In this document: positions 1 to 1,412 of the stretch, piece by piece
Numbering within the stretch: position 1 is the first letter of the stretch
How the letters are laid out: every line of letters starts with the position of its first letter
NCBI GenBank assembly: GCA_963751345.1
Contig: CAVVUS010000018.1
Location: 1 to 64,000, forward strand
Length of the DNA: 64,000 nucleotides
Origin: an uncultured Chloroflexia bacterium
GTDB taxonomy: Bacteria > Chloroflexota > Anaerolineae > B4-G1 > SLSP01
Direction: 5' to 3'
Notes under the pieces: model-generated
Told to the model about the DNA's origin: nothing
The model's input: only the letters and a program-made list of their open reading frames with translations
Databases searched by the model: none
Program-made: the position numbers and the translations under genes

Positions 1-6
1 GTCTAG

Positions 7-12
7 TATGAT
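7..12 (+). promoter_or_regulatory. -10 half (TATGAT) of the IS110 circle-junction promoter
   Basis: Joining the right end to the left end at CT places TTGACA(1288-1293) 16 bp upstream of TATGAT. Confidence 0.8.
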
Positions 13-17
13 ATAGA

Positions 18-155
18 CAAGGACACGGCAGACCAATCCCGTCTGGGTCCGTGTGAACGAGACCGCCGTAGAGCAAGGGTCGCCGTGTCCTCTGACCAGC
101 AAAGCCCGAACAGTTGCAGGGTCTCAAAGACCGTATTTGCTAGACCGGGCTGAGA
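18..155 (+). ncRNA. IS110 bridge RNA (target-binding loop plus donor-binding loop)
   Basis: Stem AGGACACGGC(20-29)/GCCGTGTCCT(82-91) encloses guides ATCCCGTCT(36-44) and CGTAGAG(67-73). Stem AGCCCG(103-108)/CGGGCT(146-151) encloses ACAGTTGC(110-117) and TGCTAG(138-143). Layout parallels the IS621 bridge RNA. Exact RNA ends are estimated. Confidence 0.85.
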
Positions 156-187
156 TGCGTATATCATACCCAAGGAGGAGCACCACG

Positions 188-1141
188 ATGACACCCCCGG
201 AATCCGCCGGCCCCTATGTCGGCATTGATGTATCCAAAGAGCGACTCGACATCGCCGTCGGCGAACGCACCGAGATCTGGACGGTGAGCAACACCCCGGA
301 GGGGGTGACAAAATGTGTGACCCGGCTGCGGGCAGTGGCCCCGGCGTTGGTGGTGGTGGAATCGACGGGCGGGTTGGAACGCCTGGTGTTGTGGGAACTG
401 AGTGCGGCGGGGGTGCGCGTGGCGCAGGTGAATCCGGCACGGCCGAAAGCCTTCGCCGTAGCCAACGGACAGCAGGCCAAGACTGACGCGTTGGACGCCC
501 GCAATCTGGCCCGCTTTGCCCAAGCCTGCCGTCCCGAGCCCCTGGAGTTGCCCAGTGTGGAGCAGCAACAGCTGGCGGCCTTGGTGACGCGACGGCAGCA
601 AGTGCTCCAGATACGCGTCCAGGAACTGAACCGCAGCCATACGGCGTTGCCGGCCCAGCACGCGTCGCTAACGGAGCATCTGACCTTTCTGGAGAAGCAC
701 CTGGCAGAGCTGGACGCCCAAATCCAGGCGCTGATCGACGCCCAGCCGGCGTATCGTGAACAGGCAACCAGGTTACAGGAAGTGCCCGGGGTCGGGCCGG
801 TGACTGCCTACACCTTGGTGGCGGAGCTGCCCGAGTTGGGGCAGTGCAACCGCAAGCAGATCGCGGCCCTGGTAGGCGTAGCACCCTACAACCACGACAG
901 CGGATGGCACCGCGGACACCGCGCCATCCGTGGGGGACGCGCCAACGTGCGTTGTAAGCTGTACATGGCCGCCATGAGCGCCAGTCGGCACAACCCCGTG
1001 ATCCGCCCCCTCTATGAACGCCTACGAGCAGCGGGGAAGCTCCACAAGGTGGCGCTGGTGGCCTGTATGCGCAAGCTACTGCTGATTCTGAACGCTATGA
1101 TCAAGAACGGTACTTCCTGGCAGCCGACCCTAGCCGCCTAG
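188..1141 (+). CDS. IS110-family transposase/recombinase (317 aa)
   Basis: RBS AAGGAGG 172-178, ATG 188. RuvC-like DEDD residues in GIDVSK, VVESTG and KTDALDA; VPGVG HhH motif; catalytic Ser motif HDSG; C-terminal [10 protein letters not shown]. Confidence 0.96.
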
Positions 1142-1181
1142 CACCCTCAGGAGAGAGCCAAGCAGAAACCACCCCTTCGTC

Positions 1182-1253
1182 GTCGTAGGGCAGGGGGCAC
1201 GGTGGGCAAACCGCAGTCTGGTTTGTCCACCGTGTCCCCTGCCTCCCTACGGC
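1182..1253 (+). repeat. Long hairpin in IS110 right non-coding end
   Basis: 23-bp stem 1190-1212/1220-1242 with two G.T pairs and a 7-nt loop, extended by GTCGTAGG/CCTACGGC. Confidence 0.85.
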
Positions 1254-1287
1254 TTGTCAGCCTCGGTTCGCCACGCCGAACTGGCTC

Positions 1288-1293
1288 TTGACA
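1288..1293 (+). promoter_or_regulatory. -35 half (TTGACA) of IS110 junction promoter; points outward in the inserted state
   Basis: Perfect TTGACA 12 nt before the right CT core. Confidence 0.8.
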
Positions 1294-1412
1294 CATACAC
1301 AGTTGCTCTACGAGAAGCAGCGGAGGCTGCGGAAATCTGACGCACACTCCTCAAGCCGAGGGTGCGTGCCGGTGGCAGCCTCCCGGGGGCGTTGTGCAGA
1401 CGTGCCGGCGCA

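Follow-up and report, generated by a model that had tools for sequence, protein, structure and literature searches.

We describe here an insertion sequence of the IS110 group that lies at the very start of contig C18 (CAVVUS010000018.1) in the genome assembly of an uncultured Chloroflexia bacterium (assembly G000, which has 49 contigs, totals 5.4 Mb and is 93% complete). The stretch of DNA analysed, hereafter the window, comprises the first 64,000 nucleotides (nt) of that contig (G000:C18:1-64000); other genomes, contigs and loci are cited by G, C and L numbers. Judged from its sequence, window 3-1307 is one IS110-group (IS621-like) insertion sequence, apparently intact, in which the same core dinucleotide (CT) occurs at both junctions, 3-4 and 1306-1307, and a non-coding left end of 183 nt (5-187) and a right end of 164 nt (1142-1305) enclose a recombinase gene. 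The contig starts at window base 1, two bases to the left of the core. The features of the element and its flanks are as follows.

1-2, plus strand: left-flank remnant GT, which closes the left target half and is all of the left flank that the contig contains; identical to bases 41-42 of the left target guide
3-4, plus strand: core dinucleotide CT, left copy, repeated at 1306-1307
5-12, plus strand: right donor half at the start of the left end, containing the −10-like TATGAT (7-12)
21-90, plus strand: target-binding loop module, from fold and covariation
104-150, plus strand: donor-binding loop module, from fold and covariation
188-1141, plus strand: recombinase gene, an uninterrupted open reading frame of 317 amino acids plus stop
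1183-1252, plus strand: long, nearly perfect hairpin of ~26 bp between the recombinase stop and the −35 box, kept in the relatives L012 and L013
1288-1293, plus strand: −35-like hexamer TTGACA in the right end, at a position conserved in relatives
1299-1307, plus strand: left donor half (1299-1305) and right core copy CT (1306-1307), the right terminus of the element
1308-1350, plus strand: right target half (1308-1312), running into the right half of a repeat unit that resembles a repetitive extragenic palindrome (REP-like), from identity with paralogues

The recombinase frame is preceded by a ribosome-binding-like site (AGGAGG, 173-178) and encodes the Pfam domains PF01548 (DEDD_Tnp_IS110; E = 4.5e-22) and PF02371 (Transposase_20; E = 6.9e-21). 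Its membership of the family is clear from the score of 230.7 bits against the NCBIfam model NF033542, "IS110 family RNA-guided transposase", whose cut-off is 140, and the only solved structures that it matched in the PDB were the ISCro4 (E = 4e-46) and IS621 (E = 7.6e-45) transposases. In the alignment to IS621, whose PDB chain is numbered with an offset of two, D14, E58, D100 and D103 in the N-terminal DEDD RuvC-like domain lie opposite IS621 D11, E60, D102 and D105, and S238-G239 in the C-terminal Tnp domain opposite IS621 S241-G242. All five catalytic residues are conserved in the alignment to the IS621 and ISCro4 structures, as had been claimed for the DEDD and Ser residues in an earlier reading of this DNA made from its letters alone (the sequence-only reading); in IS621, mutation of any of the five (four Asp/Glu and Ser241) is reported to abolish recombination (Hiraizumi 2024, PMC11208158). 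At least 7,926 database proteins matched the recombinase at E <= 1e-40. The closest non-self protein among the matches listed was 71% identical and the nearest named matches, "IS110 family transposase [Anaerolineae bacterium]", showed 64% identity; with the class named by the NCBI model and no closer protein among those matches, the same reading was also right to call the mechanism known and this member new.

The left-end RNA and its guides

The minimum-free-energy fold of the left end forms the two stem-bounded internal loops that the sequence-only reading had described, with fold z-scores of −3.08 for bases 1-187 and −3.32 for bases 18-165, and in each case none of 200 shuffled sequences folded as well. 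The target-binding module is built from an outer stem (21-29 with 82-90, and 31-34 with 78-81) and an inner hairpin (45-64), and carries the left target guide with the core (36-44), the right target guide (67-73) and a handshake guide (CA, 74-75). The donor-binding module has the same plan, with an outer stem (104-108 with 146-150), an inner hairpin (120-132), the left donor guide (110-117), the right donor guide region (133-143) and a second handshake guide (AC, 144-145).

Covariation among relatives supports this fold. Recombinase relatives were collected from six loci in the genome collection and one in the metagenome collection, and further ones came from the nine of 61 related genomes that had a match and from 15 of 401 genomes of the same class that had one at E <= 1e-70. 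From these, 14 left ends were aligned (63% mean column identity) over a structure of 26 pairs. Standard pairs filled 93.4% of the stem cells, as against 32-45% when partners were slid by 1-3 columns, and 16 of the 26 pairs changed on both sides; none of 500 shuffles reached the observed value for any of five measures. Both outer stems contribute, that of the target loop (helix 1) with both-sided changes in 8/13 pairs and 97.3% of cells paired, and that of the donor loop (helix 3) with both-sided changes in 4/5 pairs. Moreover, a covariance model made from the 14-sequence alignment returned 35 matches in 36 sources, all of them upstream of or adjoining recombinase relatives, and scored the RNA of the window at 129 bits. 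Folding and covariance modelling were both among the checks proposed in the sequence-only reading.

When the element was scanned against Rfam, no family reached its gathering score. The best structured match over the RNA was sX15 (RF02234; 7-163, minus strand; 29 bits against a gathering score of 55, E = 0.019), and the conserved blocks of that alignment correspond to the donor-loop motifs in reverse complement. As described in PMC3300014, sX15 is plasmid-borne and antisense to the small RNA asX7, with 10 homologues in a Stenotrophomonas chromosome; asX7 may thus itself be an IS110 bridge RNA and sX15 its antisense strand.

By the strand rules set out in Durrant 2024 (PMC11208160), the left target and left donor guides pair with the bottom strand and read like the top strand, the right target and right donor guides pair with the top strand, and the core is included in all four guides. 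Read in this way, the left donor guide (110-117, ACAGTTGC) equals 1299-1306 at 8/8 bases, the right donor guide (138-143) fits 3-8 but for one G.T position, the right target guide (67-73, CGTAGAG) is the exact reverse complement of 1306-1312 (CTCTACG; 7/7), and the left target guide (36-44, ATCCCGTCT) ends in window bases 1-4, matching 4/4 readable bases (GT and the core CT). Because the contig starts at window base 1, the left-target match rests on these two non-core bases and the core. All strings cited in the sequence-only reading could be read directly at their positions (110-117/1299-1306, 138-143/3-8, 36-44/1-4, 67-73/1306-1312). Its statement that all four guides match holds for three guides and for the readable bases of the left target guide, and goes too far for the rest of that guide, five of whose seven target bases lie off the contig.

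The handshake guides fit as well. They are the two bases that follow each 3' guide, which are described as pairing, once strands have been exchanged, with the other DNA at its positions 6-7 and as having to avoid pairing with their own (Hiraizumi 2024, PMC11208158). Here, CA (74-75) pairs with TG (1304-1305) at donor positions 6-7 and AC (144-145) with GT (1-2) at target positions 6-7, and neither pairs with its cognate DNA.

We then compared guides with flanks across the family, using 29 distinct guide sets from the stored alignment and loci. The right target guide agreed with its own right flank over the five non-core bases at 5/5 in 17 of 23 relatives, at 4/5 in three and at 3/5 or fewer in three, a mean of 4.57 compared to 1.83 for mismatched pairings, with none of 10,000 permutations reaching the observed sum; against the right flank of another element, a perfect 5/5 arose in 2% of pairings. 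The covariation of guides and flanks, which the sequence-only reading had named as a check, is thus observed in relatives. For the left target guide the mean over seven non-core bases was 4.38 (n = 24) compared to 2.43 for the control, again with 0/10,000 permutations, and the matches rose from the distal position 1 to the core-proximal position 7 as 6/18, 12/24, 11/24, 15/24, 20/24, 21/24 and 20/24. A 7/7 match to the left flank occurred in none of the 24 relatives, the best being 6/7. The distal left-guide positions therefore agree poorly with the flanks in relatives and are the weak point of target prediction. The first handshake base of the target loop pairs with donor position 7 in 22/23 relatives, compared to 2/24 for the control against the own target, and that of the donor loop with target position 7 in 21/24, compared to 4/23 for the control against the own donor. 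The left core is CT in 20/24 relatives.

A separate observation on the core comes from a complete genome (G176:C1; loci L057 and L061-L064) with five copies of a 43% identical relative. Their four readable right flanks agree at all five bases that face the guide. Three copies have GT as the left core and two have CT; the core-binding bases of the guide are GT and the right core is CT, a pattern which suggests inheritance of the core from the target on one side.

Target site, left flank and competing explanations

To the right, the element abuts a repeat. Window 1307-1350 is 93% identical to G000:C22:212677-212719 and 85% identical to C19:68885-68925, and both of these paralogues have a GC-rich hairpin directly 5'. 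They belong to a REP-like family of the same genome in which a GC-rich palindrome is followed by a conserved tail, the core and the right target half coming directly after the palindrome; the 11-mer CCCGTCTCTAC at the foot of the palindrome occurs 39 times in the assembly, and positions 3-14 of the predicted target have 17 exact sites in the genome compared to 0.64 expected. Insertion by such hairpins recurs among relatives. The closest relative, L012, whose protein is 71% identical, is inserted at the foot of an analogous hairpin, and its hairpin-arm sequence and left guide differ jointly from those of the window; a remnant on contig C12 of the same genome also follows a REP-like hairpin. Copies of the repeat lie, for example, at C22:212669, C19:120541 and C11:251678, and some are clustered, with three within 1 kb on C19.

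With one half of a REP-like hairpin repeat as its right flank, the element probably has the hairpin foot as its natural target. In the paralogues of this flank the preceding bases are GCCCCGT instead of ATCCCGT, and by their example the left flank here would end in GCCCCGT, agreeing with the guide at 5/7 positions, as is typical of the family. The exact 14-mer that the sequence-only reading had proposed, ATCCCGT-CT-CTACG, is thus probably not the natural target: its core-proximal part stands, and its distal part gives way before the poor agreement at positions 1 and 2 in relatives and the sequence of the paralogues. We lean towards a REP-like left flank. Four sequencing runs, all represented by low-depth contigs, were compared with the region; one contig of run X1 extends 7 nt to the left of window base 1, and no joint, circle junction or empty site was listed in any of them, a negative that at such depth carries no weight in either direction.

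A different left flank, matching the guide exactly, is offered by contig C16, which ends in ATCCCGT. On this account C16 abuts a copy of the element, the population holds at least two insertions and the right flank on C18 belongs to a different one. The last seven bases of C16 are those of the left target guide (36-42) and its last two are those of window 1-2, a match whose probability by chance over 98 contig ends we calculate as ~0.006, and the remainder of the gene interrupted at the C16 end is absent from the assembly. However, C16 ends within a frameshifted multicopper-oxidase-like frame, whereas the right flank on C18 is a REP-like repeat with no continuation of that gene, so that C16 cannot be the other side of one simple insertion, although it might represent a further insertion within the population. 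Moreover, the 7/7 left match that it requires is absent from all 24 relatives, and a 2-nt overlap would be unusual for neighbours split by the assembler, the sole overlap of at least 8 nt between different contigs being one of 34 nt. We regard an exactly matching left flank on C16 as a tentative proposal; that the C16 end is the true junction of some copy is less likely than a REP-like left flank, and anything other than these two is improbable. The gene in question (G000:C16:10950-11202, minus strand) is multicopper-oxidase-like, frameshifted and truncated by the end of the contig, and has a full paralogue on C34.

A further observation concerns the contig break itself. In another genome, contig C331 of G131 (L058) likewise has exactly two bases ahead of a related element's core, and its first nine bases are the first nine of the window. 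Assemblies may tend to break at this point of such elements.

Considered as a whole, it is highly probable that the locus holds a bridge-RNA-guided copy of an IS110-group element, inserted at a CT core by the foot of a REP-like hairpin. Protein family, catalytic residues, RNA covariation and guide-flank covariation all favour the view taken in the sequence-only reading, of an IS110 element that is intact and has a bispecific bridge RNA. Several points weigh against this explanation. The right donor guide (138-143, TGCTAG) is complementary to 3-8 (CTAGTA) at five of six positions plus one G.T wobble, and base 118 (A), next to the left donor guide, mismatches the second core base. Of the seven non-core bases opposite the left target guide, only two are readable, the other five being off the contig. 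The full 14-nt predicted target has no exact site and a single one-mismatch site in the assembled genome, this latter also hairpin-like; among 40 two-mismatch sites, 15 differ only at positions 1 and 2. The search for a left neighbour by synteny also failed to yield a target. Genome G002 carries the downstream genes at 92% identity, and its left neighbour gene maps to G000:C14:4342-5702, which points to C14 as the left neighbour, with an extra repetitive gene over ~4.3 kb between the mapped gene and the start of C14; the C14 end is not target-like. Finally, RNA expression, circle formation and present-day activity are things that we infer, and the assembly holds one full copy of the element along with two broken remnants of related ones.

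The last of these points, together with the lack of an exact 14-nt target site in an assembly that is 93% complete, would also suit an immobile relic of the same anatomy, whose guides record a past insertion and which no longer moves in this lineage. Such loss of function is at odds with an uninterrupted reading frame that keeps all catalytic residues, with the intact state of both ends, both loops, both handshake guides and the split promoter described below, and with a contig break exactly at the element boundary, as expected if the reads support more than one left flank; we consider it improbable. That the guide matches are a coincidence in a GC-rich left end with no RNA guide at all, for which only the shortness of each match speaks, is very improbable on account of the covariation of the RNA structure, the permutation test of guides against flanks (0/10,000) and the homology of the recombinase to recombinases solved in complex with such RNAs.

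The two remnants are both on the minus strand. L002 (G000:C12:77006-77169) retains a whole target loop and half a donor loop with different guides, followed by unrelated sequence, and L003 (G000:C17:1545-1679) retains a donor loop and the first codons of a recombinase gene. No second copy of the element itself was found among the loci from the protein search (six in the genome collection, one in the metagenome collection), and window 3-30 as an exact pattern had no match in viral contigs.

Proposed mechanism, split promoter and relation to known elements

In the mechanism that we propose for a bridge-RNA-guided element of this kind, the left end would encode a bridge RNA of ~146 nt with two internal loops. 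Loop 1 would set the target, its 5' side having the same sense as the left target half and core, and its 3' side being complementary to the core and five bases of the right target half; loop 2 would be specific for the element's own ends once joined. Excision by the DEDD/Ser recombinase would release the element as a circle, in which the −35 element of the right end is joined to the −10 element of the left end and could drive both the RNA and the recombinase gene, and the recombinase would insert the circle at a CT core, in this case where a GC-rich, REP-like hairpin repeat has its 3' foot. After strand exchange, the two-base handshake guides behind the 3' guides would pair with the other DNA.

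The putative promoter is split between the two ends. Joining them places TTGACA (1288-1293) upstream of TATGAT (7-12) with a 16-nt spacer, and no sigma-70-like promoter site was present in the linear copy. Of 23 relatives, 19 have TTGAC (five of the six −35 bases) within the terminal 40 nt of the right end, and in 18 of these the motif is placed 14-16 nt upstream of the core's end.

Only 16 nt separate the core from the first stem, a spacer with no predicted pairs and no room for a 5' stem-loop, which bears out the compact RNA without a 5' hairpin of the sequence-only reading. As the −10 element ends 8 nt before the first stem, the RNA would be expected to begin at around base 19-20, without a 5' stem-loop, and the predicted bridge RNA should be ~146 nt long. 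Spacers of 13-16 nt are found in 7/25 relatives with a located left end (the window included) and spacers of 23-87 nt in the rest, four of which have strong hairpins. The 5' stem-loop is described as structurally conserved among orthologues and as not required for activity; IS621 RNA that lacks it is 146 nt long and bound the recombinase more weakly, with recombination only slightly reduced (Hiraizumi 2024, PMC11208158). Given that this deletion mutant still recombines, the compact form is a plausible natural variant and not a defect.

The right-end hairpin (1183-1252) is shared with the closest relatives, L012 and L013, with changes on both arms, and was not seen in four more distant relatives that were folded. 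As no T-run follows, it does not qualify as a classical terminator, and its arms look like the target loop's outer stem. Rfam matches to microRNA families at 1183-1252 were rejected as reflecting the long hairpin only.

As a tentative joint reading of these traits, the elements of the window, L012, L013, L018, G176 and G445 might form a minimal bridge-RNA lineage, with ~146-nt RNAs that have no 5' stem-loop. In such a lineage, the 7-nt right guide, together with the five left-guide bases nearest the core, would make most of the target choice, the rest of the specificity would come from the REP-like hairpin immediately 5' of the core, acting as a structural signal, and the conserved 26-bp hairpin of the right end might have a role of its own, for example in ending or insulating the junction transcript.

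The nearest well-described system is IS621 of Escherichia coli, as characterized in Durrant 2024 (PMC11208160) and Hiraizumi 2024 (PMC11208158). The element of the window shares with it the domain order and DEDD and Ser residues, a left-end bridge RNA with the target loop followed by the donor loop, the same strand rules for the four guides, the CT core, the handshake guides, a promoter split across the two ends and a repetitive palindrome as target. It differs in its distant protein (E = 7.6e-45, 156.9 bits over residues 5-311), in the absence of a 5' stem-loop, which gives its predicted RNA of ~146 nt the length of the IS621 deletion mutant, and in a right target guide of 7 nt compared to 4 nt as given for IS621. 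On its sequence features, then, the element appears to work like IS621, all the defining features examined being present with two exceptions, the non-essential 5' stem-loop, which it lacks, and the left-flank match, which is readable only in part.

Other members of the group are comparable in some respects. ISCro4 (PDB 9t56) provides the best solved-structure match, with the same catalytic motifs aligned, although the similarity is distant. The IS1111 group likewise combines a DEDD recombinase with a bridge RNA, but its RNA is described as lying in the right end, with long subterminal inverted repeats (Durrant 2024, PMC11208160), unlike the left-end RNA seen here. With regard to the target, ISPpu10 of Pseudomonas putida inserts by a GC-rich stem-loop of a repeated intergenic sequence, and this stem-loop, just 5' of the target, is reported to be a specificity determinant (bioRxiv 10.64898/2026.03.19.712850); REP targeting has been reported for ISPpu9 of the same species (PMC12288879). 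As far as these sources describe them, ISPpu10 and ISPpu9 have the hairpin 5' of the core, as do the element of the window and L012. They differ in host phylum, and the hairpin as a specificity signal is only putative for the present element.

The mechanism (well described since 2024), the guide rules, the handshake guides and hairpin-adjacent targeting have all been published or preprinted, and the element is an ordinary addition to this body of work, of modest practical value, that opens no new question. It provides a worked natural example of a bridge-RNA element from an uncultured lineage, explains the contig break and marks the REP-like hairpin family as a landing site. Its compact RNA and long right target guide may be of relevance to orthologue screens for genome-editing tools. 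Since positions 1-3 of the left guide predict the flank poorly in nature, target predictions made from guides only are to be trusted near the core only.

Beyond the REP-like unit, the intergenic window 1395-1470 contains several imperfect tandem copies of a ~17-20-nt unit that includes CGCTACGTC.

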